Below, piece by piece: positions 10,183-28,050 of a stretch of DNA of 32,000 bases. The position numbers and the translations under genes were made by a program. This DNA is from Saccharolobus solfataricus. GTDB lineage: Archaea > Thermoproteota > Thermoprotei_A > Sulfolobales > Sulfolobaceae. Where the stretch lies: positions 1,230,001 through 1,262,000 of the forward strand of contig NZ_LT549890.1 of NCBI RefSeq assembly GCF_900079115.1, in the 5' to 3' direction. The notes below the pieces were generated by a model. It made no database searches. It worked only from the letters and a program-made list of their open reading frames with translations, and was not told the origin of the DNA. Each line of letters opens with the position of its first letter. The stretch's first letter is position 1.

Positions 10183-10532
10183 AAAAAAAGAACTGTTTAC
10201 ATTAATATTCTATTATTATTTTGTACCGAGATCAATCCTATTTTATTGAATTAAGGATGCGGAAAGAAATTTCACTCATTTTAAATACTTGCATTCATTA
10301 TCACTGCTTTCAATTAATCATTATATGTACAATTTACGTAAAAAACTATCGTGAAAGCTCAATAAAGCTCAATAAATTTGTAACTTATACTAATATTATT
10401 TAAAACTAACTGTCCATAAATACTATGCCCACTACTCTTTTGCTAACGTAATCTGAAACGAGCTCATAAATGAGTTAAAATTCCTCAAACCTTAGCTATT
10501 TTTTTATACTCTCTAACCAAGGAATATATTAG

Positions 10533-12184
<1,652 letters not shown>

Positions 12185-13486
12185 TTATAAGGATGAAGAA
12201 GAACCTATCTTCCTCACTTGATCCATTGCCCACATCATTGGACAATATCCACCACACATAGTACACGCTTTAACCTTCGGAATACCAAACTGAGTGTAGA
12301 CTTGATAAGCTCTTTGGGGATCTATGAGCCTAGAAATCATATTATCCCACTCTAACTTACCCCTATAATAGCTAACCTCATCATCCCATTTCCTAACTCT
12401 TCTCCCTAACTTAACCACATCACCAGCGTGAGCTGCAATTCTGTAAGCAATTGCCCCTTCCTCAACTTGTTTAACAGTTGGCAATCCCAAATGTTCGGCT
12501 GGAGTCAAATAGCACAATAGATCTGCACCAGCAGCTGATGATATTGCAGCACCTATTGCAGAGGCTATGTGATCGTATGGTGCACCGACATCTATCGGCA
12601 AAGGACCTAAAACATAATATGGTACACCACCAGTTAACTTCTTCATCAATTTCACATCCCATGCTATTTCATTTAATGGTACGTGTCCCGGACCTTCTAC
12701 CATTACTTGCACACCCTCCTTTAACGCACTTTTAACCAGTCTGGCCGTTTCCAAAAGTTCACCAACTTGAAATTCATCATGAGCATCCCCCGTTGCTCCA
12801 GGTCTCAATGCATCACCTAATGAAATCACTGCGTCATATTCCTTAAACATCTCCAGTAAGTAGCCCCAGTGCTTCCTATATGGATTTTCAGAATTATTGT
12901 GTATCATCCAACCAGCTATCATATCCCCTCCCCTTGATACTATTGGAATTATCCTATTGCTCTTCAACGCCCTTATGGCTAATTCCTTAGTTATCCCAGC
13001 GTGAATTGTCATAAAGGCTACTCCATCCTTTAAGTGCTTCTCCACAGTACTCAGTAATTCATCCTCAGTGAAATACGCACCACCAGATTTCTTCTTAAAG
13101 GACTCTATGAAAACTTGATAAACTGGTACTGTACCAACAGGCAATTCAGACGCCCTTATTATCTCCCTCCTTATGTCATCTAAATCACCTCCAGTCGATA
13201 GATCCATTAGTGTGTCTCCCCACCTATTAGCAACCTTTACCTTCTCCAACTCCATTTGTAGATTTACAACTTCATCCGACGTTCCAATGTTTATGTTAAC
13301 TTTAGTGGTCAACCCTTTACCAATTGGCACCAACTTTTTGCTAGGATACTTAGCGTTCCTAATTAGGATTATTTTACACTCACTTATCCTATTTCGCACC
13401 TTCTCTACTGGAATTCCCTCAAGCTTACTAATTTCCTTCATCTCGTCTGTTATTTGGCCACTTCTTGCTTCCTCTATTATGGCCAT
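12185..13486 (-). CDS. thiC: phosphomethylpyrimidine synthase ThiC (radical SAM)
   Basis: 433 aa. Conserved blocks MTIHAGI, VSRGG and [10 protein letters not shown], plus the C-terminal CX2CX4C cluster [10 protein letters not shown]. Confidence 0.92.
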
Positions 13487-13621
13487 AAGAAATATTCATA
13501 TAAGTGAGTTATAAACCTTACTATATACTATAAGATGGGAGAATCTCCTAGTAGCTAGAACTATTCAATTTGAATCATCACTACGTAGTATTTTTCATCC
13601 TTCTCCTCTATTGTGAACAAT

Positions 13622-13815
13622 AATTTTGTTAATTTAGTATTAAGTCATATACAGCATTAGCTTATTTTCAATTCAGCATACGATTTAGATGTTGAAAGAG
13701 GAAGAGAAAATCTAACAATTCTTAATCTTCATCAAAATTTTCGTTACACAGTTACTACTTAACGAGAGTGGTTTGAAGGAAGAATTTAAACTTAAAATGA
13801 GAGAAACTGTTGTCC
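13622..13815 (+). repeat. copy A of a 170-190 bp intergenic sequence family, oriented toward the nurA-like gene
   Basis: By-eye alignment to 17232-17067 (reverse complement) and 20403-20600. Shared core TTTTCAATT..CATA.GATTTAGATGTTGA. Block GGAAGAATTTAAACT (13778-13792) is identical in copy B. Confidence 0.75.
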
Positions 13816-13833
13816 TCACTCTATGGTGTAAAA

Positions 13834-13847
13834 ATTTTATTTATATA
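13834..13847 (+). promoter_or_regulatory. TATA-box-like element for the nurA-like gene (leaderless mRNA predicted)
   Basis: ATTTTATTTATATA lies about 20-30 nt upstream of ATG 13866. No Shine-Dalgarno-like sequence lies between them. Confidence 0.4.
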
Positions 13848-13865
13848 GAAAACTAATGATTATGT

Positions 13866-15038
13866 ATGAATTGGAAAGTAACAATAAAAAATACTATTGA
13901 GGAATTAGCGAAGCTCAAAAAAGATGTTAAAATAGAGAACGAGGGAGATCCAGAACATGAACTATCTGATGCAGAAGATAAAGTTATGAAAATAGAGTTG
14001 GAGGAAGAGTTTAAGCCAACGATGTACTCCTTATACGAATTTAAATCACTTAACGATAAAAGAATAGCGTCAATAGACTCCTCATCAAGGTATTTGAGGG
14101 ACTTCTCAGTTAACACATGTCTTATCGGTCTTTCAGTATATAGTAATAGAGAAGGTTTCATAGATGGTCCCTTTACTGTAGATATCCCATATATCGGAAT
14201 CAGTAGTTATAGGGAAATATTGGAAAGCTTAAAAATTGATGACATTAACGTTAGGTACAAGAATGTAGTGAACTACTATTACGTTAACGAGCCTAATAAC
14301 GAATATAAAATCGACGATATTGCGGATGAGTTGAGATTAGAAGCGGAAAACGTTGGGCTTAAAAGGGTTATTCAGAACCACGATATAGTTATTATTGACG
14401 GTCCAATATACCCAACACCATTGGAGCTAACTGAGGAAATAAACTTAGAGACAGAAGCTAGGAGAAAGCATAGATTAGCTTATGCCAAGCTAGTAAATGA
14501 GAGAATAGAATTACTAAACAATAACGTAATTGGAGTAGTGAAAAGATTAGAGAATTCAAAGAAGCTTTGGAGAGTTAAGGAAATTAATGAAACAATAGGT
14601 AACGTTAAAAGGATGAAGGACGTAACGATTATTGAACTAATAGACGAGCGTCTTTGTAGGAAAAACTATGAGTACGTATGCACTATAGGCCCATTTAAAA
14701 TTGAATATGCCCTAGAGGTTAAAGATGAAGATGGGAGAAATGTTATAGAAAAAGTTCCAACTAAGTACGCTTATTATGTCATCATTAGAAAAAAGTACTT
14801 CCCACCAACTTTTCTGAGAATAGAGAGTACTAATAAGAACCTAGACATCTCTCCAGTTTTATCTAGACTAACGGAGAGACTAATGCCCACTTACATTGAA
14901 ATCGTTGATAGGAGAAGTAAGAGAATATCGGCATCACTCTTTTTATACGCATACGAGATTGCCTCCAATTACTTAAACATCATTCACGACGATAAAATGG
15001 GCTACCTTAGCGTAATCTCACAGTTCACCTCTGAATAG
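13866..15038 (+). CDS. NurA-like nuclease domain protein (paralog, not in an mre11/rad50 context)
   Basis: NurA-like acidic motifs [20 protein letters not shown] and [10 protein letters not shown], with the expected order and spacing. It is paired with a HerA-like ATPase. Confidence 0.6.
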
Positions 15039-16815
15039 TCTTTATGGGAACCTCACTGAAATATATGGAATACACTATGGCCAATCCCGGTGTTGCATGC
15101 CTTAGAAAATCCTCATATTCCTCCAACCCTAATCTCCTCAGTACATGACTCTCATTTCTCATAACGACTTTAGTATTGGTAAGTTGAAGAACCAAGGGAT
15201 TTAAGTCCTCGGGGACATGAGTGGCTAAAACTACCCCTATGTTCCTAACCCTACCTAGCCTCATTATCCTATTTATTAACCCCTCTACAATGTCCTTTGA
15301 TACATTCTCTTGATCAGTCTGCGGGAAGTACTCGTGGGCTTCATCCATTATTACCAAAGTTAACTTAGTCGTCTCCTTCATCTTATATAGTTCATCCTTC
15401 CAGTTGAAGAAATCCTCTAGAAGCTTATACGCTATAGTGGCAACTGCCTCTATTGACGCTGATCTATTCATAACCCAACTTAAATCCACTACTACATCAC
15501 TATATGACGAAAAAACGTCTTTAGGCTTAAAGTCCACAGTACCGGGCACGGTGAAAATACCGTAACTATCATAAGCCTTTAAGGTTCTTAAAATGGCCTC
15601 TTTAGTCTGGTAGGGAACATCAAGGCGTTTCATAGCCTCTTCGAAAGCCTTCCCCATATTAATGGTCAACATCTTTTTACTCCCATCATAAGAGGAAAAT
15701 TGTTTAGATTTAGATCCAGAGACCATCTTCAAATCGTAAAACCCGCTGATCTTTCCAAGTAGGGATCCCGGGGTTAGTCTATCTCGTAGGAAATCGCTTA
15801 GCTGATCTTCGTAAAAGGTCTGTTTCTTATCAGCTAGCTCATAAAGGTCATATCCAATTATTTCAAACATGTTATTCACAATGGCCTCCCAATACATTGA
15901 AGCCTTTGGAGTGAAATACGGAGTAATCTTATTGAAATTTTTTAGAACAGAATAGAAGTTTATTGAATAGGGTATGAGGAATACCTCTGATCCATTACAT
16001 TCCTCTAAAACTCCATCCTCTTTAACGTCTAGTATATTATCACAATCATACCAATTGGCGAATTTTTCGGCGTGATCCTTTAGCGATATCGATCTTGAAG
16101 CCTCCTCAACTACTGGCATAATTACCGCAAATCCCCTTCTCTTTTCAATTAAGTAGTTAATGAAATCCCCTTGCCTATCGAAAATGAAAGTACCCTTATC
16201 GATTTCCTCACTGCTTATCATACTTTTTAACAAAGTAGTTTTTCCAGACCCAGTTGTGCCTAAAATTAACGTATGATGCCTTAGCGTATATTCGTCAAGT
16301 CTAACGCTAGCATCAGTCTCCTCTCCTCCTGAAAATATTTTGCCTATAGTTATGCCCCTACTTGGAATATTCAAGATCTTTTCTATTAAATCGTGGTTTG
16401 GAATGAAGACTGGACTTTGAGGATCAACTGGAGAAACTGGTGGTCTTATTTTTCCGTTCTCAATCTCAGCAATTGGCTTTAGCTCCACATAAGTTGTGGT
16501 AATAATGGTTGTTGGATCCTTAGGATAGCTCAATTCCCTAATTCCTAACTTAGATAGGGCATCAGCCCTTGTTATGGCACGAACTTGTCCTAAAATTGTA
16601 ACTGGCCTAGTTATACTTCTAATGGCTAAATATTGACCTTTCTTTACATCGGAGTTTAGATAATCCTCAAACGCTATATCAACACCAATCAACTCATTAT
16701 CCTTAAGGCTAACACTCTCAAATCTAGTTATTCTACCAATTAGTTTACCGAATTTTTTCGCATCTGCTTCAGCTTCGTTTAGTTTATCCCCTAACTTCTT
16801 TACTAACTCTTCCAC
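15025..16815 (-). CDS. HerA-like (DUF87/FtsK-HerA superfamily) hexameric ATPase
   Basis: N-terminal HAS-barrel-like region (GRITRFES...GQYLAIRS...[10 protein letters not shown]). Walker [15 protein letters not shown]. Walker [16 protein letters not shown]-terminal block [24 protein letters not shown] start. Confidence 0.85.
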
Positions 16816-16835
16816 AAATATAAAAAATGTAAGTG

Positions 16836-16846
16836 AAAAATTAAAG
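16836..16846 (-). promoter_or_regulatory. TATA-box-like element for the herA-like gene (leaderless from GTG 16815)
   Basis: On the minus strand CTTTAATTTTT spans -31 to -21 relative to the GTG start. Confidence 0.4.
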
Positions 16847-17066
16847 CATTTTCGTCTTCAAACTATAGATATGCTTAGTAGATCTGTTGAATATTTTTCC
16901 ATTCAATTAATGATAAGATGTACAATTTATGTTTGCTATCTCTCTTAACTCTTAGTGGAAATTCAACAATTCCACAAGAAGCAGTGTAGATGAGGAAAAG
17001 GATCAAGAACTATAACTTTGTTCATGTCTTTATACATTTGACTCGTTTGTTTTCTTGAAACTAAAT

Positions 17067-17232
17067 GTGAATGGCAATTTCATTCATTTCAGACTCAGTT
17101 TAAATTCTTCCGAACTACATTAGTTAAGTGCTTTAATTGTGTGACAAAATCCTTGGCAAATGGTTTAAAATTGTTACATCCTCTCCTCGTCAACATCTAA
17201 ATCTTATGTTAAATTGAAAAATAACGAATACC
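17067..17232 (-). repeat. copy B of the intergenic sequence family, oriented toward the herA-like gene
   Basis: The reverse complement reads TTATTTTTCAATTTAACATAAGATTTAGATGTTGACGAGG...GGAAGAATTTAAACTGAG... It aligns with copy A over its whole length (3 mismatches and 1 gap in the first 33 core columns). Confidence 0.75.
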
Positions 17233-17429
17233 TTTTATGGCCGTTGTTTTACACACTCCTTAGAAATACTTTAGCCTTACCCTCTCTCTTTTTTGAAATA
17301 TTTTCTTTGTCATGATAATAAAGAAGATAAAGGGAGTAGTGGTGTCATTTCCTTCAGAGAGGATAATGAGGGAGATAGTAGAAGAGTTAAAGGAAGATGA
17401 AAGCAAGAACAAGAAGTGAATTAACTTTT

Positions 17430-19109
17430 TTATTGTCCTCCTTTTTCTTTTTTCCATTTTTCTATTAATCTATTAAATTTATTTATATTATCTGGATTTA
17501 GTGTCCCTATAGTGGATCTTAAAACTTCAACGAACTTATATATATCAGAATTGTTGTCATCAAGACGGGAATATATATCCAGCGCTGTCTTTAAGCTAGC
17601 CGGTGAGATATTAAACTTTATTACCTTATCTTCTTTTTCATTTAGATTAACTCTAAGATATTTTACAAGATCCTTAACTTTATTCTTAAAGTCCTCACTA
17701 AAAGAAGCGTAAGTTTTAAGAAATTCATCTAAATCTTCGGTTTCTTTCGGATAATCAAAGTAAATTATCACGAACCTTCTTGCCAGCGCATCTCCAACAT
17801 AAAACAGATTTCTAGCATCGACTAAGTTTATTGTAGCAATAATTCGTATTCTTTTTAATGGTTCATTCTCTCTACTCTCCCTCTTTAACTTCTCATATAT
17901 TTCTAAGAAACTCTTGGTTACATTATCTATATTATCTCCATAACTCTTAATTTCCTCTATTAGAGCATTGGGAATTGACCATTCGCTAGGATATGGAGTA
18001 GAAAATATTGTCATTAATTCTCCAAATGCCTTATCAACGTCAGCCCTATTCAATTCATCAATTACGACGTAATAGTTCCCATCCTTTATTCTTGCAGCAT
18101 TTACGTAAGCTTCAATGAAAAGCCCGCTCTTCCACATTACAGATCCCTCTCTTATACTTTCTCCTCCTATCAAATTCCTTCTAAACCAAAGTGAATTGGC
18201 AGTAGCTACTTCATAACAGTTATCATTATTACCAGTTAAAGCTCTCACAGTCCTTATAGCTAAGCTAGTTTTTCCAGTACCAGGTGGGCCAGCTAGGAGT
18301 ACATTAGTAGTTTGTAGAGCTTTCAGTATAATGTTAACTGAATCTTGAGGAATATAGAAACCATTAAGATCTATTTGTGCGTTTTTATTACAAACTACTT
18401 CCTCTGATAGGTATTCTTTCTGAGTACTGAAACGAAACTTAGAATAAAATTCTAAAGTAGACCTAATTTCCTCTTTCTTCGATAGAATAAATTGTTGAAA
18501 AGCTTTAACTGCATCATTATTGTCTTCTGTATAGCATTGGTTTGATTGATTATTAACCCCTTCTAACTTATAATCTTCTCCCACCCATTTATTACTGTCA
18601 TTATAGTTTTTTCTTATGCTTTCGTGAAGCCAAAATATTTTTATTCTAAATCTTACTATCCAGACTTTGTCACCTTCCTTCCATCCTTTAAAATTCCTCA
18701 TCGCGTCCTTTGTGATATCCGTTACTACTCCGAATCCAATAATGCCTAGCTCTTTTGTTCTTAGAAGGGCTACCAGTATTTTATCGTTCTTAATTTCTAT
18801 TTTATTTTTATTCTCTGTATCATTTTTCTTATCTTTTCTCTTCTTATCTTCTCCAAAATAGATTTCGTCATACCTGTTTAAAATGCTACTAATATTGCTA
18901 CGATTTTCAGCCGAAGCACCCCATAAAGTATATCCTAATTCTCCATAAAAAGAATATTTTATAGATTCTACCCAATGAGATTTTTCACCTATAAAGAAGC
19001 AAGGAACAAAATTTCCTTTTTCAATATAATCGAGAAAAGTTTGCGCACTATCTTGAGAGTCTAGTAATTTTTTGAACTTGTCTCTGACTACTAACCAATC
19101 ACCATACAC
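17430..19109 (-). CDS. McrB-like AAA+ GTPase with a distinct N-terminal (possibly PUA/EVE-like) domain
   Basis: Walker A LLAGPPGTGKTSLA. McrB-type Walker B/sensor block YYVVIDELNRADVDKAFGELM. NxxD-type motif ATINLVDAR. The roughly 230-aa N-terminal region (FFIGEKSHW...LWG...LGIIGFGVVTD...GDKVWIVRFRIKIFW) has a PUA-like pattern, interrupted by a K/N-rich insert. GTG start. Confidence 0.85.
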   Translation of the reverse strand: MYGDWLVVRDKFKKLLDSQDSAQTFLDYIEKGNFVPCFFIGEKSHWVESIKYSFYGELGYTLWGASAENRSNISSILNRYDEIYFGEDKKRKDKKNDTENKNKIEIKNDKILVALLRTKELGIIGFGVVTDITKDAMRNFKGWKEGDKVWIVRFRIKIFWLHESIRKNYNDSNKWVGEDYKLEGVNNQSNQCYTEDNNDAVKAFQQFILSKKEEIRSTLEFYSKFRFSTQKEYLSEEVVCNKNAQIDLNGFYIPQDSVNIILKALQTTNVLLAGPPGTGKTSLAIRTVRALTGNNDNCYEVATANSLWFRRNLIGGESIREGSVMWKSGLFIEAYVNAARIKDGNYYVVIDELNRADVDKAFGELMTIFSTPYPSEWSIPNALIEEIKSYGDNIDNVTKSFLEIYEKLKRESRENEPLKRIRIIATINLVDARNLFYVGDALARRFVIIYFDYPKETEDLDEFLKTYASFSEDFKNKVKDLVKYLRVNLNEKEDKVIKFNISPASLKTALDIYSRLDDNNSDIYKFVEVLRSTIGTLNPDNINKFNRLIEKWKKEKGGQ

Positions 19110-19133
19110 AAAAAAGGGTAGGTAGTCTTGTAT

Positions 19134-20339
19134 TTAAATGTGTTCTTTCATTATCTTATCGATCTTCGATAAATTATTTTCATCTGACTCCAAAGGATCG
19201 ATGATAATCATATATAATAAATGACTATTATACCAAAAGTCTAGTATTCCGCTTTTTGCTCTGGCAATCCCATCCAATTCCATTGTAGCCTCATCTTCGT
19301 TATCGAAGTTAATTTGTTTAATTTCCAATCCAGGATAAACTAATACTGCTAATGAAGGATCATATTCATAAGTATAAGCCATAATTTTGAATCTACCCAT
19401 TGTAATATAACTAACTTTAGATGAGTACTTACATTCAAAGATAATCGGCCTTTCGTTAACAAGAGAAATATCCGGTCTTCCCTTATATTTCTCTATATCC
19501 TCTATATAATCAACCTTTCTTAGAGAGGATTGGCTAAGTGAGGCATTAAATATTATACTTAACCTCCTATTACCTCTTATAGCTATATATTTCTCTTCCT
19601 CCTTCTTTATTTCATAACCTTTAGATTCAAGGTAATTTACTACTAAGTAGAATACATAAAGCTCATATAATTTCCACATGATGAATTTTATTAATTTCTT
19701 GTTTATAGGCCTCTTGGGTGTCCTTATCCCTACCTTAATTTCCTCTAATTCTTTAGCCGTATAATACGCTTTGTATGCTCGTAATAACCAATCTGGGTCA
19801 GTATAGGACGGATCTCTAAAATAACCATCCGGAAATTCCTCCTTGATTTTATCGAGCTGAGAAAAAGTCTGGTCGAAATCATCCAAAAAATTAAAGTAAC
19901 GAGGTACTTGTTCTTTTCTTACTTCAATTTTACTTCGTTTTTCCTTAATAATGGAATAAATTCTTCTCGTAATATAGCCTAAGATTCCATATTCTGGAGC
20001 ATTATATCCCTCGGTAAAGCTATGATAGGCTACCAAACCCATAGAGTATACCGGAATACTTAGGTCTACATTCAACTCACCATAAAGGTCATTGGAGTAT
20101 TCAATTGAAAATTCTCTATAGGTTAATCTACTCTTTTTTGCATCCTCTGCAGATCTTACTACACTAGCTGTTATTAAGTACATAAGGTAATAATAAATAT
20201 ATGATAGTGTATAGTCATCTAGAGGGACTTCCTCAGTTCCATTAAAAGTTGAGAGCAACTTTTCAACATCTAAGATCCCCTTATATTGTAGATAATAACT
20301 TCCAACCTTTTTTAGAAGCGCCCTATCTCTCCTATTCAC
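19134..20339 (-). CDS. McrC-like PD-(D/E)xK nuclease subunit
   Basis: The C-terminal half carries YELYVFYLVVNYLE, then GRPDISL...RPIIFECKYS (a PD...ExK catalytic motif) and FKIMAYTYEY, matching McrC layout. It ends 24 nt upstream of the McrB-like gene on the same strand. GTG start. Confidence 0.65.
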   Translation of the reverse strand: MNRRDRALLKKVGSYYLQYKGILDVEKLLSTFNGTEEVPLDDYTLSYIYYYLMYLITASVVRSAEDAKKSRLTYREFSIEYSNDLYGELNVDLSIPVYSMGLVAYHSFTEGYNAPEYGILGYITRRIYSIIKEKRSKIEVRKEQVPRYFNFLDDFDQTFSQLDKIKEEFPDGYFRDPSYTDPDWLLRAYKAYYTAKELEEIKVGIRTPKRPINKKLIKFIMWKLYELYVFYLVVNYLESKGYEIKKEEEKYIAIRGNRRLSIIFNASLSQSSLRKVDYIEDIEKYKGRPDISLVNERPIIFECKYSSKVSYITMGRFKIMAYTYEYDPSLAVLVYPGLEIKQINFDNEDEATMELDGIARAKSGILDFWYNSHLLYMIIIDPLESDENNLSKIDKIMKEHI

Positions 20340-20358
20340 ATAAACTAATATGTTCTGG

Positions 20359-20367
20359 AATATTTAA
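20359..20367 (-). promoter_or_regulatory. TATA-box-like element for the mcrC-like/mcrB-like operon
   Basis: On the minus strand TTAAATATT spans -28 to -20 relative to GTG 20339, consistent with a leaderless transcript. Confidence 0.4.
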
Positions 20368-20402
20368 CCATAGATTCCTAAGTCATCATAAGTATGAATA
20401 AC

Positions 20403-20600
20403 AATTTTATTAATTCAGTACAAATCATATGAAGTGTTAATTCATCTTCAATTTAACGTATGATTCAAATGTTGAAAAGAGAAGAGGAGGCAATTTTTAA
20501 TTCTTTTTCAAAAATTTTATTACATAACTAAAGTATCTGATAAATGTGGCATTAGAGAAATTTAAACTTAGTTTCAAATGCATGAAATCGTTATCCATTC
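20403..20600 (+). repeat. copy C of the intergenic sequence family, oriented toward the ATPase gene at 20820
   Basis: AATTTTATTAATTCAGTA...CTTCAATTTAACGTATGATTCAAATGTTGAAAAGAGAAGAGG...AGAGAAATTTAAACTTAG aligns by eye with copy A from 13622 onward and with copy B. Confidence 0.7.
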
Positions 20601-20783
20601 TTAGGATTAGAAAAGTATTACAAACTTAAATTGAACATTTTTACATAAATTGAAAGGAACATAACAGTAGTGTGGTGGTAAAAAACAACTGATCGATAAA
20701 TCAGTATTCTTAAGAACGGTTTTATGTTTACGATGTTACTGGTTATTATTTCCAAGCAAGTCTTAATAAAGGGAAAAAATTAT

Positions 20784-20822
20784 AACTTCTGGGGCAGAAG
20801 TTGAATTCTGGGGCAGAAGTTG
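20784..20822 (+). promoter_or_regulatory. tandem palindromic operator-like repeat overlapping the ATPase start codon
   Basis: The 17-nt unit TTCTGGGGCAGAAGTTG occurs twice (20787-20803 and 20806-20822, period 19). The first copy sits in a perfect palindrome AACTTCTG-GGG-CAGAAGTT (20784-20802). An A/T-rich TATA-like AAAAAATTATAA lies at 20774-20785. Confidence 0.6.
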
Positions 20823-21881
20823 CTATTTGATGAAAGGCCTAAAGAAAACAGAGAAGACTTGTTTGATAGGGAAAAAGAGATTAAAGAAATAATGAGTAAC
20901 ATTAACAGGCCTTTGATTTTAATCACTGGAGTCCGAAGAATAGGTAAAACATCAGTATTAAAAGTCGCACTTAATGAGATAAAAATACCCCATGTCATAA
21001 TAGATTGTAGAAACTTACGCCCTAACTACAGTAGAGGGGATCTATACTCACTATTCTCTAACGCTTTTTCATCAAAACTATCCACCTTCCTTGACGTGCT
21101 AAGTAAGATAAGAGGGGTTAGCATTTTAGGTAACAGCGTTGAACTAAAATGGAAGGGTAGAGAATACGTCAGTTTATCAGATCTTTTTGATCATTTGAAC
21201 GAGAAAAGGATAGTAATAGGGATTGACGAAGCTCAAAAATTGAGGGGACCATTATCAAATGAAATAAAAGAAGCTATTGCTCATGCTTACGATTATGACA
21301 AAAACTTAACCTTTATTTTAACGGGCTCTGAGGTGGGACTACTTCATGACTTTTTAGGAGTAGAGGACCCCGGGTCACCGCTCTATGGTAGATACTATTT
21401 CGAGATAACGTTAGAAAGGTTTGATAAAGAAAAGAGTAGGCAGTTTTTAAGAAAGGGTTTCGAGGAGTTATCATTAAAGGTCGAGGAGAATGTAATACAA
21501 GATATCATCGCAATGGTTGATGGTATCCCGGGATGGTTAACTTTAGCAGGTAATCAATATTTCAATAATAGGGATTTGAAAAGAGTAAAGGATCTGGCAA
21601 TAAACGTTGCTTTGAACGAAATTAACAGCTTGATCTCGGTTAAAAATAACGTCTCTCCCATTGTAGCAAAACGTTACAGAACAGTCCTAAGGTGTATAGC
21701 TAAGGGAATGAATAGTTGGAGTAAGATACTCAATTGTGTACAAAATGAGGAAGGTAGTACAATTTCCACTAGTGTTCTTAGTAACATTCTAAATACTTTG
21801 AAGAAATTGAGCATCATCGACGAAAATTACCGATTTTTAGACCCAGTTTATAAGGAAGCGTCTAGGATGCTTAGAAATTAA
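20820..21881 (+). CDS. archaeal ATPase family protein (Arch_ATPase/PF01637-like P-loop with C-terminal DUF234-like wHTH)
   Basis: N-terminus LFDREKEIKEI, Walker A LITGVRRIGKTSVLK, Walker B IVIGIDEAQKL, and a helical C-terminal region. TTG start at 20820. Confidence 0.8.
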   Translation: MLFDERPKENREDLFDREKEIKEIMSNINRPLILITGVRRIGKTSVLKVALNEIKIPHVIIDCRNLRPNYSRGDLYSLFSNAFSSKLSTFLDVLSKIRGVSILGNSVELKWKGREYVSLSDLFDHLNEKRIVIGIDEAQKLRGPLSNEIKEAIAHAYDYDKNLTFILTGSEVGLLHDFLGVEDPGSPLYGRYYFEITLERFDKEKSRQFLRKGFEELSLKVEENVIQDIIAMVDGIPGWLTLAGNQYFNNRDLKRVKDLAINVALNEINSLISVKNNVSPIVAKRYRTVLRCIAKGMNSWSKILNCVQNEEGSTISTSVLSNILNTLKKLSIIDENYRFLDPVYKEASRMLRN

Positions 21882-22045
21882 TTTATAATTTTAAGTATTT
21901 CAACTCTTTTTTGAGAAAATCGTATCATTATATTGGTATATTCAGGACAATCTTGACCTTATATTAGGGACTTACTAGTTAACCTATTATTCATTTAGGT
22001 TTTACCTCCTTGGTGAGATGATTTGGCCATTCGTCAAAAGACTCT

Positions 22046-23190
22046 ATTACAAATGCTAAAAGCCTTGCCCTTCTAGGGGCTGGGATGAAAGTCTAAATAC
22101 ACCCTTTCTTCTTAAAATATTTCGTGGCTAGGAGGAGGGGTAAGAAAAACCCAATCAGAGCTACTGTTGCAATGAAGATTGGCCTCACTCAATCTCTCCT
22201 AGACCTATCAAACAACTATGTTAAGCATTAAGGTATTTGTTATTCTGGTTGAAAGAAAAAGGGGTGAATCATAACCAGAACAAGAAGAAACTCCTCGATT
22301 TAGTCCACCAAAGTGTTGGCGAACTACCAATATTGGTTATCCCAGAAACTTAAAGGAGTACTTGAACTGGAGAATGAAGGAAACTAAGCTTGTTATTAAA
22401 GGTGATGAGGCATACCTTAAAGTCGTTTTTGAGAAGGAAAGGGAAGAGATAATACCAAAGGAGAGTGTAGCAGTAGATATAATATGGATGACGTTGTAGT
22501 TGGGAAAGACGATGTTAAATACGTTAGGATCCCAACTAGACTGGCTGAGGCTCATCATTGGAAGTCATTAGCTGAGTCCCTACAAAGAAAGTATTCAAGG
22601 AGGTGGAGGAGTAATAGAGAGATTCTATTGAGGATTCGTTCTTTTCATTTGAAGGCTAGGAGGATTATGGAGGATTTTGCAAGGAAAGTTGGTAAGTGGG
22701 TTGTTGATGAAGCCAAAAGGATGGGTGCTAATGTGGTTAAGTTAGAGAGGTTAACTAATATGATTAAACGTTAGTGCTTTCAGAAAGTTTATAGCTTTAG
22801 GCAAAGGATATACCACTAGATCATAGTCTAAGAACTTTTCCAAAATACTAGTGTGAGGAACCTTTCGTCGGGGTTTAGGGATCGTCTCTATTTAATGCCG
22901 TATCGCCGTGTTCAGTATTGGGTTGAGTGGGAGGCAATGAAGTGTGGTCTTCTAGTAGAATTCGTTAACCCTAAGTGTTCTTCTGTCCTATGCCCTAAGT
23001 TTGGGAAAAAATGGAGGAAAGCGTACATCGTTGATTTCATTGTTCTTGTGGTTATGAGAATGATCGTGATGTTATTGCTGTAGTTAATCTTAATGGGAGG
23101 GGGTCTCTGACTCTCTTGACTGCTCCTCAGATGAGACCCGAATCGATAAGGGGAACCGCCATTTATGGCGTTGAGAAAGTCAGAAGACTA
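22046..23190 (+). pseudogene. tnpB: decayed IS200/IS605-family tnpB element (multiple stops and frameshifts)
   Basis: The left end ATTACAAATGCTAAAAGCCTTGCCCTTCTAGGGG is homologous to 6092-6126. tnpB fragments lie in different frames: [40 protein letters not shown]...[12 protein letters not shown], then [43 protein letters not shown]. The zinc finger and DRDV motif are broken by a frameshift. The tail reads [20 protein letters not shown]. Confidence 0.75.
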
Positions 23191-23644
23191 AACAATGAAG
23201 GTAAAGAATTTGTTCGAGAATATTAAACACTTAAAAAGAGAAGTGTGTCACTTCAAGGAGGTCAAAGGAGAGACTCGGAGGACATGCGTTAGAGAAGTTA
23301 CTAGTTGCAGCGTGGTTGACGATGGATAATTTGTATTTCAACTAGAACTAATTATGCTAGCATTTCCAGTATTTCTTATTCTTCATAATTCATTAATATA
23401 CTATTTATAAAGTCAGAAAAGCAAAGCAGATCTTCTTTCAACATTCTATTTTAAGATAAATTTATAATGTGATGTTACTACTATAAAAACTATGAAAGAT
23501 TCTATTGAAACTTATAATAATGTTATTCTCTATATTAAGTTGCATTTAGTTAAAGGCCTAGAAAACTCTAGGAAAGGCCATAATATGTTTAAGCCATATG
23601 TAACAAGTCACTTAGTAGTAAGTAAAAAATAGAGGAGTTCACCT

Positions 23645-25459
23645 ATGCCATTACCAGTAATACTACATGAAACTACTCAAGTTAAAGATTTAGTTACTGC
23701 ATATAGGGAAACGTTTAATGAATATCCTTCTGTTGAACAAGAAAACACGTGGAGAAGGCTCTTAGATATACTTAAAGGCCTTAATATATCTCATCCTATA
23801 ATCATGGAATATCCAATATTTACAGAAAGAGTTGACACTATCTTTGTAGATAAAAATAGAGCCTTAGTAGTTGAGGCTAAGGGTTGGAAGAAAGTAGAAC
23901 GAATAGATGATCTCACTATTAAGGCTGATGGAGAGCTTCACTTAGATCCATGTTATCAACTAAACAACTATGTGACTAAATTAAACACTTTCCACTCCTC
24001 AAGTATAAAATTTGATGGTACGCTCTTCCTTTATAACACTATGGACTATTCCTCCTCGGAATGTGAAGTGTTAAGAAACCCTAATGATCTGAAGAAGAAA
24101 CTTGATAACTATTCGCCGGGAGGCATACAAGATGCTGACAAAATAGTAAACGGGAAGTTTGTATTAACCAAGGACTTCATTAAATTTGTTGCTGAAGTAA
24201 AAGAACATTTAAAAGGGAACGTGGCTAAGGCAATTTTACCTTATGGTTTTGGTCTAACAGAGGAACAAGGTTTAATCTTAAGCAAAGTTTTGAAAGCTCT
24301 TGAAGATAAAGATGTGAAGAAGAACTTTCTTATAAGAGGTGGTAGTGGGTCTGGTAAGAGCTTATTAGCCGTGACTATCTTCCTTGAAGCGTTTAGTAGG
24401 GGCTATTTCACTATCTTATCTTATGTGAATCAAAGATTACTAAATACCATAAGATTACTACTAGGTGGAAGTGAAAGGAAACGTAAAGAAGGTAATATTT
24501 ACAGAAGTAAAGCACAAGCTTTATCCCAGTTTATTATGTTTTACTCGACGGGTTATGGTTTCGGAGTGGGAGAGGAGAAGTTCCCGGAGTGGTTTAAGAA
24601 AACCTTTGAAAGAGATGTAGACGATATAGACTTAATCGTATTTGACGAAGCCCAAAGGATGAATGTTAACGTAATAAAAAATTCTTCAAGAGGAAGGGTT
24701 AACGTGTATTTTTATGACGACTCTCAGATATTATTAGGAGATGAAGAGGGGACTGAAGAGACCTTTAAAAAGTATCTTACCAACGTGGAAGAATACCAAT
24801 TATCCTCATCTATAAGGGTACCAAAGGATTATATAGAGGCAGTGAAAGGCTTACTTGAAGGGAGGAAAGTTACGGTAAGGGGCTATGATTTTAGGATCTT
24901 CAATGATGTAATGAGTATGATAAATGAATTAAAGAAAAGGAAAGACGAGGGCAGAAAAGTGGCGTTAATATGCAGCTTCACGGAATCTGTGGGTGATAAG
25001 AAAAATAAGACAAAGTGGACTTTAGAAAACATAAGGATAGGGTATCCGTTACAATCTGGTTTCGATCTTTACAAGAATACCAGTTTAAGGGTTAAGTGGC
25101 TTATGGATGAGAAAACTGAATATCCTAAATACTGGAGAGGAGAATTAGATCCCCTACAATACTGTGCCTCAGTATATGGTGCGCAGGGATTTGAGGCAGA
25201 TTATGTGGGAGTTGTATGGGGAAGAGACATGATATGGAGGGATAGTTGGACCGTCAATCCAGACCTTACACCTATTACGGATTATGTGGGTGGAAGGGAT
25301 TCCTTAAAAAAAGTGTTAAAAAGACACAAAACAAAGGCGCTTAAACTACTAAAGAATAGATATTACATTATGTTAACCAGAGGGATAAGAGGAGTTTATC
25401 TCTTCTTCGAGGACCGTCAAACTGGTGAGAAAGTAGATGAATTAGTTGAGGTTATGTAG
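23645..25459 (+). CDS. DUF2075-type P-loop NTPase (SF1-helicase-like) with N-terminal PD-(D/E)xK-like nuclease domain
   Basis: N-terminal RVDTIFVD...ALVVEAKGWK (a D...ExK pattern). Walker A IRGGSGSGKSLLA. Walker B LIVFDEAQRM. C-terminal YYIMLTRGIRGVYLFFED is typical of DUF2075. GAGG lies about 10 nt upstream of the ATG. Confidence 0.75.
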   Translation: MPLPVILHETTQVKDLVTAYRETFNEYPSVEQENTWRRLLDILKGLNISHPIIMEYPIFTERVDTIFVDKNRALVVEAKGWKKVERIDDLTIKADGELHLDPCYQLNNYVTKLNTFHSSSIKFDGTLFLYNTMDYSSSECEVLRNPNDLKKKLDNYSPGGIQDADKIVNGKFVLTKDFIKFVAEVKEHLKGNVAKAILPYGFGLTEEQGLILSKVLKALEDKDVKKNFLIRGGSGSGKSLLAVTIFLEAFSRGYFTILSYVNQRLLNTIRLLLGGSERKRKEGNIYRSKAQALSQFIMFYSTGYGFGVGEEKFPEWFKKTFERDVDDIDLIVFDEAQRMNVNVIKNSSRGRVNVYFYDDSQILLGDEEGTEETFKKYLTNVEEYQLSSSIRVPKDYIEAVKGLLEGRKVTVRGYDFRIFNDVMSMINELKKRKDEGRKVALICSFTESVGDKKNKTKWTLENIRIGYPLQSGFDLYKNTSLRVKWLMDEKTEYPKYWRGELDPLQYCASVYGAQGFEADYVGVVWGRDMIWRDSWTVNPDLTPITDYVGGRDSLKKVLKRHKTKALKLLKNRYYIMLTRGIRGVYLFFEDRQTGEKVDELVEVM

Positions 25460-25887
25460 TTTATACTATCGGTTAGCTGAGTATTTTTAGAACGTCCGTT
25501 ATTATCATGATAGTAGTGGAATATGAAGGTCTTAAAGTATACTTGAAAGATGAGGAAAGTCTCAACACTTTTCTGTTAAAATACGGAATTAGTAGAGATG
25601 AAGTAAAGATAGTCTATTATTAGAGACTTGACTAACAATTTTTTGCCTACAGAGATGAGTGTGGATAGCTGGCTAGATTTGGGTTTTCAAGAACTCTTAG
25701 ACGGTTTACTGTTTGCAGTATATTTAGCAAGAGCTTCTATAACTGCTGGTTATAGCGTAGGAAGGGATCAAATTGATGAAAGCTCTTAGGGAAAGTTATA
25801 GATCATCAAGAAGAGATTGTGAATCTTATGAAAAATTTGCTGAAATCAATAAAGAACTCATAAAGAGGATGAATTAAATGACTTTAT

Positions 25888-26195
25888 AGAGGAAGGTGAA
25901 CTTCTCCGCCCTCACGATGGAGATTTCCTGCTTCTCAGATTAACCTCGATCCCCATAGCGGAGGTTCCAACGAACTGTTCTGTAATGCCCCGTGTGGAAG
26001 AGAGGTTACGGAGGGTTTGCTCTCCACAGGCGTCAAGGTTAGTCCCAAGGATATGACCCTAGCGCTTCCAGCCAAGGTTTGATACATTTTATCATTTTTC
26101 CACTAATAAACGTTTCCAGGGCTATCCATCCTTACGGAAGGGGATTTTCGCCCCCTAACTTCTGATAAGTTAAAAATACAGCTAGGAACGCATTA
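25888..26195 (-). mobile_element. MITE-like internal-deletion derivative of a tnpB-type IS (left-end segment fused to tnpB 3' tail/right end)
   Basis: The reverse complement of 26195-26125 (ACTTATCAGAAGTTAGGGGGCGAAAATCCCCTTCCGTAAGGATGGATAGCC) matches 6168-6224 of the intact element. The reverse complement of about 26060-25895 encodes a tnpB C-terminal tail ending AAGCAGGAAATCTCCATCGTGAGGGCGGAGAAGTTCACC. Compare AAGCAGGAAGCCTTGTCCGTTAGGGGAGGGTAGTTCACC at 7438-7476. Confidence 0.6.
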
Positions 26196-26736
26196 TCAAG
26201 AAACAAAAGTGAATGGCTTCCTTCTTGCATTCACTAAGATATGTCTTCTATTAGATATCGAATAAGACGACTGCTTGAGAACATTCCAAATTCTAAAATG
26301 CCTCTTGAATCTTCTGATTTTACATAAAGTATACTATAAAAATGTTTTTTAAACCGGAGAGCGGTAATTAAATTAATGATTGCAAAAGTATATTCATGTT
26401 TAGGTCCCATATATATTAAAATTGCAGAAGAGAAATGTGATGACATGGATAAAGTAATATCTGACTGGAAATATGCGTGCCTTATAGAATTCTTCGATGA
26501 GGAAGGGAATTTAGTGGAGTCAATAGATCCCAAGGAGTTATGAAAGAAAATAAGGGGGTAAAAAGAACTTTATTAAGGGCGATTCAGGTCTTCTTTGCGA
26601 ATTGTAATTTGTTAATAATGTCGATATAAAAATAACATTAGTAATAATACATCTCTACTATTAGTAGTTTTTCATCCAATTGAATTCGATCAATCTTTGA
26701 AATAAAGTGGGTTTACATTGAATACTTAAATCACCG

Positions 26737-28050
26737 CTATTTTAATACTTTCTGTTTTGCCTCTACAAACTGTTCAGCTTCAGTGGAACCTTCCATTGCA
26801 GTAGTGGACGCTTCTCCCCCAGACGCTATTGTTAACACTAGGTCAAAGTAATCTGTTCCAACCTCTCTCTGGTGGCTTACTGCAGTATAGCCTTCTGCTT
26901 GTGCTTGGAACTCTAACTCTTGTAGTCTTACATATGCTGGCATTCCTTCATTTCTATATGCTCTCGCTAATTTGAATGTATGGTAGTTAATTAAGTGCCA
27001 ACCTGCAAGAGTAATGAATTGGAATTTATAGCCCATTTCTCCCAATTCGTTCATGAACTTGCTAATTTTAGAATCATCCATAAATTTCTTCCAGTTAAAT
27101 GAGGGGGATAAATTGTACGCTAACATCTTACCTGGATAATGAGTGTGAATAGCCTCAGCAAATTGTCTAGCCTCTTCCAAATCTGGCTTAGAAGTCTCAA
27201 ACCACAATAGGTCAGCATAGGGTGCATAAGCTAATCCTCTAGCTATGGCGTATTCAATACCACCCTTTATCTCATAATATCCCTCTGATGTCCTCTTTCC
27301 TGTTAAGAATTGATTATCAGTCTCATCTACATCGTTAGATAAGTATTTAGCATTCAGTGCGTCTGTCCTTGCTATTAGTATTGTTGGTACTCCTAATACG
27401 TCAGACGCTAGTCTTGCAGCGTTTAGTACTCTTATAAATGCACTTATAGGGATCAGAACTTTCCCTCCTAAATGGCCACACTTCTTCTCTGCTGCTAATT
27501 GATCTTCGAAATGTACCCCTGCAGCCCCTGCCTCTATTAAGGCTTTTGTTAATTCGAAGGCGTGAATTGGACCACCAAAACCAGCTTCAGCATCTGCAAC
27601 AATAGGCAGTAAATAGTCAATATCATGTTTACCCTCACTCCAAGATATTTGATCAGCCCTTATAAGGGCGTTATTTAACCTCTTTACTAGGTTTGGAACG
27701 CTGTTAGATGGGTATAAGCTTAAGTCTGGATAAGTTTGATTTGATAAGTTGTTATCTGCAGCTACTTGCCATCCACTTACGTAAATAGCCTTAAGGCCCG
27801 CCTTTGCCATTTCCACTGCTTGGGAACCCGTTAATGCCCCAAATGTTGCCACATAGGGCTCAGTATTTAGTAAGTTCCAAAGTTTGTGAGAGGCTAACTT
27901 AGCTAAACTATACTCAATTCTAATAGATCCTCTTAATTTAACCACATCCAAGGGCTTATAATTTCTCTTTATTCCTCTCCACCTTGGATCTTCAGACCAC
28001 TCATATTCGAGACTTTTCTCCTCTTCAATCCATTTATCTCGGATGTTCAT
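26737..28050 (-). CDS. aceA: isocitrate lyase
   Basis: 437 aa with the ICL signature KKCGHLGGK and ICL/PEP-mutase-family sequence throughout. It lies downstream of malate synthase. Confidence 0.93.

Follow-up and report, generated by a model that had tools for sequence, protein, structure and literature searches.

Paralogs of HerA and NurA linked to cas cassettes have been described (PMC6546367, PMC3973734), and the McrBC literature includes the system of Thermococcus gammatolerans, in which McrB carries a YTH-like N-terminal domain (PMC7680126, PMC11090510). Among mobile elements, the Sulfolobus MITEs SM1-SM4 are known from S. solfataricus P2 (PMC10969869). Our analysis of a 32-kb window of the Saccharolobus solfataricus genome (the whole stretch of DNA analysed, 32,000 nt) indicated that the interval between thiC (SSO1324) and aceA (SSO1333), comprising SSO1325-SSO1332 at window positions 13487-26736, is a genuine accessory mosaic of defence type, its 13 kb made up of four nuclease/ATPase cassettes, each gained on its own, with transposon scars at the joints. 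We give a probability of roughly 0.7 to the reading of a mosaic accessory region made of four independent defence-island-type cassettes with mobile-element scars between them, and we infer its defence role from family membership and context. Genome regions of this kind are already known, and the thiC-aceA island is a well-built but fairly ordinary case. In the literature, we found neither papers describing the island nor published experiments tying any of its genes to virus or plasmid resistance.

As the original prediction had it, the interval is framed by housekeeping genes, ilvC (11141-12142, passing the TIGR00465 cut-off) and thiC (12185-13486; PF01964, 1e-166) on the left, and aceA (26737-28050; PF00463, 2e-113) and aceB (28512-30992; malate synthase A, partial match, 3e-37) on the right, all on the minus strand. 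SSO1324 is a thiamine biosynthesis gene (PMC5134839), and identical copies of its protein are found in AE006641.1 (P2) and CP050869.1. The further claim that every sizeable ORF inside encodes a nuclease and/or a P-loop NTPase was borne out for 6 of 6 large ORFs by family scans and fold comparison, along with the proposed identities (NurA-like with HerA-like, McrC-like with McrB-like, an Arch_ATPase/DUF234 protein, and a PD-(D/E)xK plus DUF2075 protein). Among the flank ORFs scanned, no defence-type nuclease or NTPase was identified outside the interval, the sole P-loop protein seen there being an ABC-transporter ATPase, and the 32-kb window held no tRNA and no Rfam family. The McrCB segment was indeed more A+T-rich than ilvC/thiC (32.3% GC for McrB and 32.7% for McrC versus 40-42%), but this does not point to a foreign origin because other genes outside the interval have 34.5-38% GC and the synonymous codon usage of the interval genes does not deviate from that of the host. 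With 34.8% GC for the interval versus 37.0% outside it, base composition and codon usage are host-like, and the low GC of McrCB is therefore no evidence of transfer.

The intergenic spacers had been called unusually long; they are indeed long (379, 614, 480, 602, 561, and 1277 bp), but spacers of 367-589 bp are also present outside the interval. The left flank, too, has IS elements and long spacers. The spacers of the interval are long because three of them hold decayed MITE copies, while a shattered tnpB and a plasmid/virus-related piece occupy others. The MITE copies, located by nhmmer with a profile built from 14 metagenome copies, belong to an element of 210 bp bounded by terminal inverted repeats: decayed copy A in the thiC-NurA spacer (13612-13821, plus strand; profile positions 4-210, E 2.5e-16), 5′-truncated copy B in the HerA-McrB spacer (17066-17238, minus strand; positions 38-207, E 2e-8), and copy C in the McrC-ATPase spacer (20392-20597, plus strand; positions 3-205, E 1.4e-23). 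The original prediction had overlooked these three copies, which explain the long spacers, as well as a small conserved gene beside McrB. Within the 32-kb window, MITE copies (n = 3) are confined to island spacers, and their scores of 58-82 bits against the 210-bp profile and mutual identity of about 72% mark them as old. Hot-spring metagenomes contain multiple copies of the family, many of the matches lying about 100 nt from contig ends, and some copies are flanked by 8-bp target duplications. Its terminal repeat is GAGTGTGGACAACAAT, and the parent is likely an IS about 0.8 kb long whose DDE match, of IS240 type, is weak. The predicted decayed tnpB of IS200/IS605 type was recovered at 22097-23223 (plus strand) as fragments across three reading frames that, once stitched, match PF07282 (1e-10) and PF01385 (7e-4). 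A G+C-rich non-coding piece of 266 bp (25910-26175) is common to Sulfolobus conjugative plasmids and an Acidianus virus: intergenic stretches of pARN4 and of a second plasmid record, NC_006425.1, match it at 77% identity, and Acidianus tailed spindle virus does so at 75%. The piece has no Rfam match, and its folding z-score is -0.76.

Synteny among relatives favours an accessory region. In Sulfolobus sp. E5-1-F, exo-ilvC-thiC and McrB-McrC are kept at 85-91% identity and McrCB adjoins thiC, NurA/HerA being replaced there by 44 bp of TIR-like filler, with a 43-nt frameshifted NurA stub left at the thiC site and a 65% identical NurA/HerA pair about 30 kb away from it. The synteny stops 144 bp upstream of McrC, at 20483, inside MITE copy C, and the sequence beyond McrC is wholly different. 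The cassettes occur in unrelated neighbourhoods in S. shibatae, Acidianus, Metallosphaera, Sulfurisphaera, and others; McrBC was found in six other unrelated contexts, and 3 of 9 McrBC loci have a DUF2075 gene nearby, each arranged differently, with one copy only 26% identical. These comparisons, together with the frameshift of the ATPase gene in strain P2, indicate that the four cassettes are independent of one another. No "empty" thiC-aceA site was found among the relatives compared, and, with exact copies on 33-42 contigs, the cassette set looks fixed within the species as sampled. That the cassettes are not co-inherited, that breakpoints coincide with MITE copies, and that IS elements and long spacers extend into the left flank would also fit a recombination and insertion hot spot that collected dispensable genes and transposon debris, forming no functional island and sharing a nuclease/NTPase theme by coincidence. 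We consider this unlikely, given that all six large ORFs are of defence-island type, that several match PADLOC models, and that three genomes have McrBC and DUF2075-type genes close together; moreover, such a hot spot overlaps the usual account of how defence islands form and is therefore more a mechanism than a rival.

The first cassette of the mosaic consists of a NurA-like nuclease of 390 aa (13866-15038, plus strand; PF09376, 2e-39; PADLOC NurA "Type III coevolved", 4e-12) and a HerA-like hexameric ATPase/translocase of 596 aa (15025-16815, minus strand; DUF87/HerA_C; PADLOC HerA "Type III coevolved", 1e-48). The two ORFs are convergent, with 3′ ends overlapping by 14 bp, and this constant layout, kept in 4 of 4 genomes, is a new detail. 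Nearly all of the 39 NurA homologs come from Sulfolobales. An assignment of HerA to housekeeping repair failed, the protein scoring 36-46 bits against cut-offs of 800-970 for both repair equivalogs, short by a factor of about 20. Judged by these profile matches, the pair appears to represent paralogs of the CRISPR-associated type and not repair orthologs. The label applies by homology only, because neither cas genes nor repeats of CRISPR type turned up in family scans and a repeat search, which covered mainly the interval and its immediate flanks. Directly upstream of the pair in S. tokodaii is a gene for Csx1 (CARF-HEPN).

The second cassette pairs an McrB-like GTPase of 559 aa (17430-19109, minus strand; AAA_5; NCBIfam McrB, 6e-16; PDB E. 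coli McrB, 2e-14) with an McrC-like nuclease of 401 aa (19134-20339, minus strand). McrB retains the invariant motifs GPPGTGKT, DE..NR, and N428..D431 in its AAA+ domain, which follows a predicted YTH-like reader domain (residues 1-240; 18390-19109, minus strand); the latter has no sequence match in PDB, and the top 50 Foldseek matches of its model (pLDDT 84) are YTH domains (E 2e-4, probability 1.0). Searches of Pfam, PADLOC, NCBIfam, and PDB sequences found no match to the McrC-like protein, and all 58 of its homologs (n = 58) are annotated as hypothetical. Its AF2 model (pLDDT 82) has McrC chains as the top four Foldseek matches (E 8e-7 to 7e-4; best probability 1.0), the invariant residues E226, P289-D290, and E302-C303-K304 of the family form a PD-(D/E)xK motif (PD..ECK), and its profile matches the Cas4 nuclease 4ic1 (E 0.016). 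The protein is a very divergent McrC of a Sulfolobales-specific family, recognisable only by fold and motif. PADLOC returned no system-level match for the pair, and the gene order varies among genomes (McrC-McrB or McrB-McrC). A small gene of 35 aa, MIIKKIKGVVVSFPSERIMREIVEELKEDESKNKK (17312-17419, plus strand), lies tail-to-tail with McrB. Convergent genes of this kind, of 35-43 aa, adjoin McrBC in 7 of 9 Sulfolobales loci, irrespective of the order of McrB and McrC, and they are a new detail; substitutions per codon position follow the order 3>1>>2. The small gene has no family match, and its exact sequence is not in the S. solfataricus gene-call/protein collection.

The third cassette is an "archaeal ATPase" (ATPase_2) of 353 aa with a C-terminal MCM-type winged helix (20820-21881, plus strand; PF01637, 2e-20; PF21100, 5e-9; PADLOC candidate PDC-S27, 1e-9), whose gene is frameshifted in strain P2, forming two fragments versus one gene in CP050869.1. 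The fourth comprises a nuclease-helicase of 604 aa (23645-25459, plus strand; PF09848, SLFN-g3/DUF2075, 1e-72). Its N-terminal NERD-like PD-(D/E)xK domain, with residues E55, D64, and E76-A-K78, falls just below the cut-off (1e-3; 20.1 versus 22.1 bits), and PADLOC AbiO and Nhi each match at 1e-13 over only about 100 residues. To our knowledge, no defence phenotype is known for archaeal DUF2075 nuclease-helicases. An ortholog in S. shibatae is 75% identical, and proteins with the same architecture over their full length are encoded on many bacterial and archaeal plasmids, at 21-23% identity. A 38-aa ORF directly 3′ of the gene (25507-25623, plus strand; no family match) and a 55-aa ORF (26376-26543, plus strand) share 84% and 70% aa identity with positions 17135-17245 and 17692-17853, respectively, of the S. 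shibatae locus (L021), where the homolog of the 55-aa ORF is also downstream of the DUF2075 gene.

SSO1331, one of the proteins encoded in the interval, was reported to bind ssDNA-SSB complexes (PMC10003305). That pull-down, the host-like composition, and the name "DNA double-strand break repair nuclease NurA" given by NCBI to several homologs could be taken to mean that the genes are spare housekeeping repair functions. NurA/HerA would then be a second machine for end resection, SSB would recruit the DUF2075 protein as a helicase-nuclease for repair, and the McrB-like protein would be a motor acting on chromatin or in repair. This reading seems quite improbable, as HerA misses both repair equivalogs by a wide margin, the distribution within Sulfolobales is patchy with neighbourhoods that differ per genome, NurA/HerA is deleted at the thiC site in E5-1-F, and the ATPase gene is broken in P2. 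The canonical herA-mre11-rad50-nurA operon, moreover, sits elsewhere in Sulfolobus. That a single plasmid or virus integrated here and then decayed, leaving its cargo genes, as the 266-bp piece and the IS and MITE debris throughout the interval might suggest, is hardly credible, since the interval yielded no integrase, tRNA, att-like repeat, or plasmid/virus core gene, the McrC-like protein has no match among 72,556 plasmids, and the cassettes are found singly in chromosomal contexts elsewhere and are therefore not one unit.

Under the mosaic reading, the cassettes would have been gained or lost separately. HerA, as a hexameric DNA translocase powered by ATP, would feed the NurA nuclease. The second cassette may constitute a type IV (modification-dependent) McrBC-like restriction system, in which McrB would recognise a modified base by its YTH-like N-terminal domain and translocate by its AAA+ GTPase ring, with cleavage left to the PD-(D/E)xK site of the divergent McrC; the 35-43-aa protein is a likely third part, possibly regulatory. 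The third would be a winged-helix ATPase of PF01637 standing as an orphan, and the fourth would join a putative NERD-like nuclease to a DUF2075 helicase in one Nhi/AbiO-like protein, followed by two small downstream ORFs. The IS/MITE family and the IS605-type element presumably inserted between the cassettes, and these insertions may account for one or more deletions, and probably for one rearrangement, in relatives.

Compared with known systems, the NurA/HerA pair resembles the CRISPR-associated paralogs of Crenarchaeota (Vestergaard 2014; Shah 2019, clusters 57/58) in that exactly these are the best PADLOC models and that both genes are always paired, but no cas gene is adjacent here, in E5-1-F, or in S. 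tengchongensis, and the two genes converge, their 3′ ends overlapping, instead of running in the same direction. The ATPase is like the PF01637/DUF234 family (PADLOC candidates PDC-S27 and PDC-S01) in joining ATPase_2 to a C-terminal winged helix; that family is large and paralogous, and its PADLOC entries are candidates, not proven systems. The nuclease-helicase shares with Nhi/AbiO and other DUF2075 (SLFN group-3) proteins the fusion of an N-terminal PD-(D/E)xK/NERD-like domain to the helicase, although it differs from Nhi/AbiO in the short span of the PADLOC matches and in a NERD score below the Pfam cut-off. As with SM1-SM4, the island MITE is short, non-autonomous, and multicopy, with terminal inverted repeats, and, like Sulfolobus MITEs and small IS elements, it has ends in common with an IS of about 0.8 kb. 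The McrBC pair differs from known McrBC in a McrC family lacking detectable sequence similarity to Pfam, NCBIfam, and PADLOC McrC models, in its variable gene order, and in its convergent small companion. It is, like the type IV restriction systems of E. coli and T. gammatolerans, a two-gene unit whose McrB has Walker A, Walker B, and NxxD signatures and an N-terminal reader of predicted YTH-like fold, and whose partner carries its PD-(D/E)xK motif in the C-terminal part and is most similar in fold to solved McrC chains.

Our ORF map and family scans bore out every gene call of the original prediction for the interval between thiC and aceA (13487-26736), along with the housekeeping flanks ilvC, thiC, aceA, and aceB, and the reading of this interval as an accessory island of defence type was supported by the patchy, mosaic contexts of its genes in relatives and by their family matches. 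The thiC protein of the window is identical in S. solfataricus P2 (AE006641.1) and CP050869.1; the latter, with an intact PF01637 ATPase gene, is closer to the window than P2, where that gene lies in two pieces. P2 coordinates equal window coordinates plus 1,141,604 for window positions above about 10,000. We take aceA to be SSO1333. On the other side, thiC is SSO1324 (PMC5134839). The interval therefore corresponds to SSO1325-SSO1332. The expected A+T-richness of the McrCB segment held against ilvC and thiC (32-33% GC for McrB and McrC versus 40-42%); other flank genes lie at 34.5-38%. Given these flank values and the ordinary synonymous codon usage of the island genes, composition is silent on origin, and foreign composition was rejected as evidence of transfer.

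NurA (13866-15038, + strand) and HerA (15025-16815, - strand), both identified by family scan, are convergent in the window with a 14-bp overlap of their ORFs. The convergent layout recurred in all four genomes compared (the window, its relative Sulfolobus sp. E5-1-F, S. tengchongensis, and S. tokodaii; comparison loci L027, L028, and L029), with overlapping 3′ ends in three of the four, which suggests overlapping antisense transcripts. The NurA/HerA operon of DNA repair, by contrast, is co-directional. HerA also failed both repair equivalogs, scoring 46 bits against NF040819 (cut-off, 970) and 36 bits against NF040937 (cut-off, 800), and neither mre11 nor rad50 adjoined the pair in any of the four genomes, the window included. 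A reading of the genes as spare repair functions fits less well than a defence-type island. The best PADLOC models were cas-linked for both proteins (HerA, PDLC01055, 1.1e-48, 164 bits; NurA, PDLC01056, 4.3e-12), the next-best HerA models reaching 1e-17 or worse. Such cas-linked clusters stem from surveys describing HerA/NurA paralogs beside crenarchaeal CRISPR-cas cassettes (PMC3973734, PMC6546367). No cas gene was seen beside the pair in E5-1-F or S. tengchongensis, nor among those ORFs of the window that the family scans covered; S. tokodaii alone has Csx1 next to the pair, a CARF-HEPN gene that stops 38 bp upstream of NurA. Judging from the family, a HerA hexamer would translocate DNA into the NurA nuclease.

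Homology to E5-1-F covers 10497-13908 (85%) and 16982-20483 (91%) of the window, and 44 bp stand in E5-1-F where the window has NurA/HerA. Because E5-1-F retains the NurA start codon with about 14 frameshifted codons, and because the 44-bp filler starts with GAGTGTTGTCAACAATTT, a near-copy of the terminal repeat of the MITE/IS family described below, the difference points to a transposon-linked deletion of NurA/HerA in E5-1-F, not to an insertion in S. solfataricus. A second NurA/HerA pair, 65% identical, lies about 30 kb away in E5-1-F. On the right side, the homology ends at 20483, and glycoside hydrolase genes come next in E5-1-F. Elsewhere the McrBC genes have unrelated neighbours. In S. 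shibatae they are surrounded by IS elements, and an intact tnpB and the DUF2075 block come after them; in Acidianus sp. HS-5 they adjoin toxin-antitoxin genes and a DUF2075 protein of 26% identity; and those of Metallosphaera sedula, Sulfurisphaera javensis, and GCA_000245275.2 are found in other surroundings. A single decayed integrated element fits these mosaic contexts less well than a defence-type island. The comparison contexts were drawn from loci of island-protein homologs; thiC-based synteny in one-genome-per-species contigs yielded only relatives of at most 87% identity, with no neighbour in common with the window. No relative with thiC directly beside aceA was seen among those examined.

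The original prediction of unusually long spacers held for the island itself (379-1277 bp), but spacers of 367-589 bp occur outside the interval too. Three island spacers share 50-nt matches in a repeat search, extending to more than 200 nt on alignment. A copy of the same element in S. tokodaii (L029 4629-4841) carries perfect 18-nt terminal inverted repeats, and a pattern scan of metagenome contigs recovered 38 further stretches (L030-L067) with unrelated flanks, many of them about 100 nt from a contig end, where a repeat that breaks assemblies would be expected. The element is thus common in hot-spring metagenomes. From 14 full copies, we derived a 210-bp consensus with the terminal inverted repeat GAGTGTGGACAACAAT, and 8-bp target duplications flank the copies in L035, L041, and L050. 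This element, being short, non-coding, and multicopy, with terminal inverted repeats and target duplications, is a MITE. A shared promoter, operator, or non-coding RNA was rejected as the source of the repeated segments, given the lack of an Rfam match and given that copies in metagenomes have perfect repeats at their termini but flanks that are unrelated. Six other stretches hold only the right end of the MITE; three of these are bounded by the left repeat about 0.8 kb away, and one such element has an ORF of 238 aa that weakly matches an IS240-type DDE domain. This IS of about 0.8 kb is probably the parent of the MITE. A profile search found exactly three MITE copies in the window, all in island spacers: A (13612-13821, +), B (17066-17238, -), and C (20392-20597, +). 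Of the E5-1-F breakpoints, one lies inside copy C, and the others are 88 bp away from copy A and 85 bp away from copy B. Four MITE families, SM1-SM4, have been described in P2 (PMC10969869).

The remaining long spacers are due to a tnpB wreck and to the stretch 25460-26736, in which a G+C-rich insert of 266 bp and two short ORFs with conserved sequences are found. The decayed tnpB was real, with fragments in three frames (22097-23223) whose stitched product matched PF07282 at 1e-10. The left flank has an intact tnpB (6314-7471), but an origin of the debris from it was rejected: the two show no tblastn similarity, so the debris belongs to a different subfamily. The intact tnpB has 44.7% GC (GC3, 0.53), against 36% for the window, and the most deviant codon usage among all genes scored; its counterpart in P2 is interrupted by another IS (DDE_Tnp_1). 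A mere junkyard also fits the interval less well than a defence-type island.

The McrB-like protein (17430-19109, - strand; family scan) has an AAA+ core matching AAA_5 at 1.6e-12 and, among PDB sequences, E. coli McrB chains at 2e-14. Its Walker A motif GPPGTGKT (G274-T281) and Walker B residues D351-E352 are invariant in 22 full-length homologs, as are N428 and D431 of the signature T-I-N428-L-V-D431-A-R-N. The canonical McrB signature motif is NxxD, MNTADRS in E. coli (PMC11090510). With 6e-16 and 58 bits in the NCBIfam McrB model, the protein missed the 637-bit cut-off of equivalog NF008457; it is a distant family member and no ortholog of E. coli McrB. Residues 1-240 had no sequence relative in the PDB. 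For an AlphaFold (AF2) model of this region built from 17 homologs (pLDDT, 84; pTM, 0.83), the 50 best Foldseek matches were all YTH m6A-reader domains (E about 2e-4; probability, 1.0), with target-normalised TM-scores of 0.45-0.57, and several Trp and Tyr residues of the domain are invariant among homologs. The McrB of the archaeon T. gammatolerans has a YTH-like N-terminal domain too, with which the predicted YTH-like domain of our McrB fits.

The 401-aa McrC-like protein (19134-20339, - strand) was without a family match. Its gene adjoins McrB in the window and in each of nine further Sulfolobales loci, ten in total, and its 58 homologs, all from Sulfolobales, are all named hypothetical. 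No family of Pfam, NCBIfam, or PADLOC, their McrC models included, matched the protein at E≤0.01, and 32 homologs had no family in common at E≤1; no Pfam domain was found on any of the 58 homologs. The McrC side of a McrBC-type restriction system is thus invisible to Pfam, NCBIfam, and PADLOC. The residues invariant in 32 aligned sequences (E226, P289-D290, and E302-C303-K304) form a textbook PD-(D/E)xK site in the C-terminal part, which a PDB profile search brought into alignment with the Cas4 nuclease 4ic1 (E, 0.016). The top four Foldseek PDB matches of the AlphaFold model (pLDDT, 82) were McrC chains from E. coli and from T. gammatolerans (6hz4_M, 6ut7_G, 6ut6_G, and 7vsr_M), at E values of 8e-7 to 7e-4 over about 420 columns. 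The TM-scores were only 0.30-0.39, which we attribute to the flexible two-domain shape. The predicted model has the overall McrC fold, N-terminal finger domain included. Given the motifs and matches of McrB together with the PD-(D/E)xK site and fold of its partner, we regard the two as a restriction system of type IV, dependent on modification. Behind a distant McrBC pair on a metagenome contig (L071 7245-13248) come genes for a PAPS-reductase-like protein, a PDDEXK_1 protein, and an SF1 helicase, which resemble a further cluster of defence type that may be related to DNA modification.

In related McrBC loci, a gene of 40-43 aa was called time and again directly behind the pair, in the opposite orientation, and the window holds a corresponding 35-aa ORF (17312-17419, + strand) 10 nt from the McrB stop codon, tail-to-tail with it. 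This ORF corresponds to about 1,158,916-1,159,023 of AE006641.1. Other copies lie at L021 12984-13106 (S. shibatae), L022 12907-13032, L024 9330-9452, L025 9248-9373, L026 11547-11678, and L020 about 12930-13040. An HMM built from six copies detected the small gene beside McrBC in seven genomes (7/9 loci), with both gene orders, McrC-McrB and McrB-McrC; it was absent from two McrBC loci, the most distant of those compared, and had no match elsewhere in the approximately 0.9 Mb of compared loci. Differences among the closer copies by codon position (e.g., 3/2/10, 7/0/11, and 12/2/14) are those typical of a gene that is translated and subject to purifying selection. In its exact S. solfataricus form, the protein was absent from a collection of 15 billion gene-called proteins, so no gene call in that collection holds this product, and full-library phmmer returned the S. 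shibatae copy only. The protein belongs to no detectable family: AbrB/MazE-like and ribbon-helix-helix identities were rejected for lack of a Pfam match, and hhalign gave a probability below 1% against MazE-type and VapB-type antitoxins. A 38-aa ORF after the DUF2075 gene was rejected as a member, the HMM giving no match even at E≤10. This small gene travelling with McrBC was previously unannotated.

Collectively, the Sulfolobales McrBC genes might constitute a three-part type IV system, with a YTH-like-reader McrB, an HMM-invisible McrC, and an obligatory 35-43-aa protein, encoded tail-to-tail with the pair, that controls the nuclease, a tentative reading to which we give about three chances in ten. 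Such control could be exerted by direct binding to the complex or by 3′-overlapping antisense transcription. If this three-part reading is true, a whole clade of archaeal restriction systems has been missed by standard defence finders, and the small proteins are a new class of regulator.

The third cassette is an ATPase of family PF01637 that has a winged helix of MCM type (20820-21881, + strand; family scan; compared with L017 1607-2667) and whose PADLOC matches were to candidate families only. Its gene is intact in the window and CP050869.1 and forms two ORFs, a pseudogene, in P2; because it is split there, the ATPase is dispensable in at least one laboratory strain. The fourth is a 604-aa protein (23645-25459, + strand; family scan) with a near-threshold NERD region and a full DUF2075/SLFN-g3 helicase domain, matching PF09848 at 1.1e-72 over the full profile. 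The NERD match of its N-terminus scored 20.1 bits, under the 22.1 cut-off, and the pattern E55, D64, and E76-A-K78 was read there from the sequence. PADLOC AbiO and Nhi gave weak, partial matches (1e-13), and full-length relatives occur on many plasmids at 21-23% identity. Downstream of the gene, the window has ORFs of 38 aa (25507-25623) and 55 aa (26376-26543), and both recur behind the 75%-identical ortholog of S. shibatae (L021 17135-17245 and 17692-17853), with 84% and 70% amino acid identity. Given this shared block, the three genes appear to form a unit. One paper reports the recovery of SSO1331 together with ssDNA-SSB complexes and the lack of a homolog in S. acidocaldarius (PMC10003305). 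Going by the order of locus tags, SSO1331 (somewhere in 22000-26700) would be the DUF2075 nuclease-helicase or else a fragment of tnpB; in the former case, the finding would hint at recruitment by SSB.

An insert including a piece related to plasmids and viruses sits between the 38-aa and 55-aa ORFs in the window. This G+C-rich, non-coding piece (25910-26175) is 75-77% identical to intergenic DNA of pARN4 (L068 1501-1791), NC_006425.1, and Acidianus tailed spindle virus (L069 1501-1771). It is thus common to a chromosome, two S. islandicus plasmid records (NC_006425.1 being the second), and a bicaudavirus, with indels that are not multiples of three. A structured RNA was rejected, as there was no Rfam match and the folding z-score was -0.76 against shuffled controls; the three sequences are too few for covariation. 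A scan of viral contigs for the core of the piece gave no match.

S. solfataricus is a main model for archaeal virus-host biology, and its innate defences beyond CRISPR are poorly charted; the interval brings together four candidate systems that can be tested. With its cassettes, MITE/IS scars, and a transposon-linked deletion in a sister strain, it also illustrates clearly how archaeal islands of defence type are assembled and worn down. No current ideas are overturned by these findings. Each cassette is of a known kind, and the new details are an HMM-invisible McrC family, its small companion gene, a constant convergent NurA/HerA layout, and a MITE-scarred architecture.
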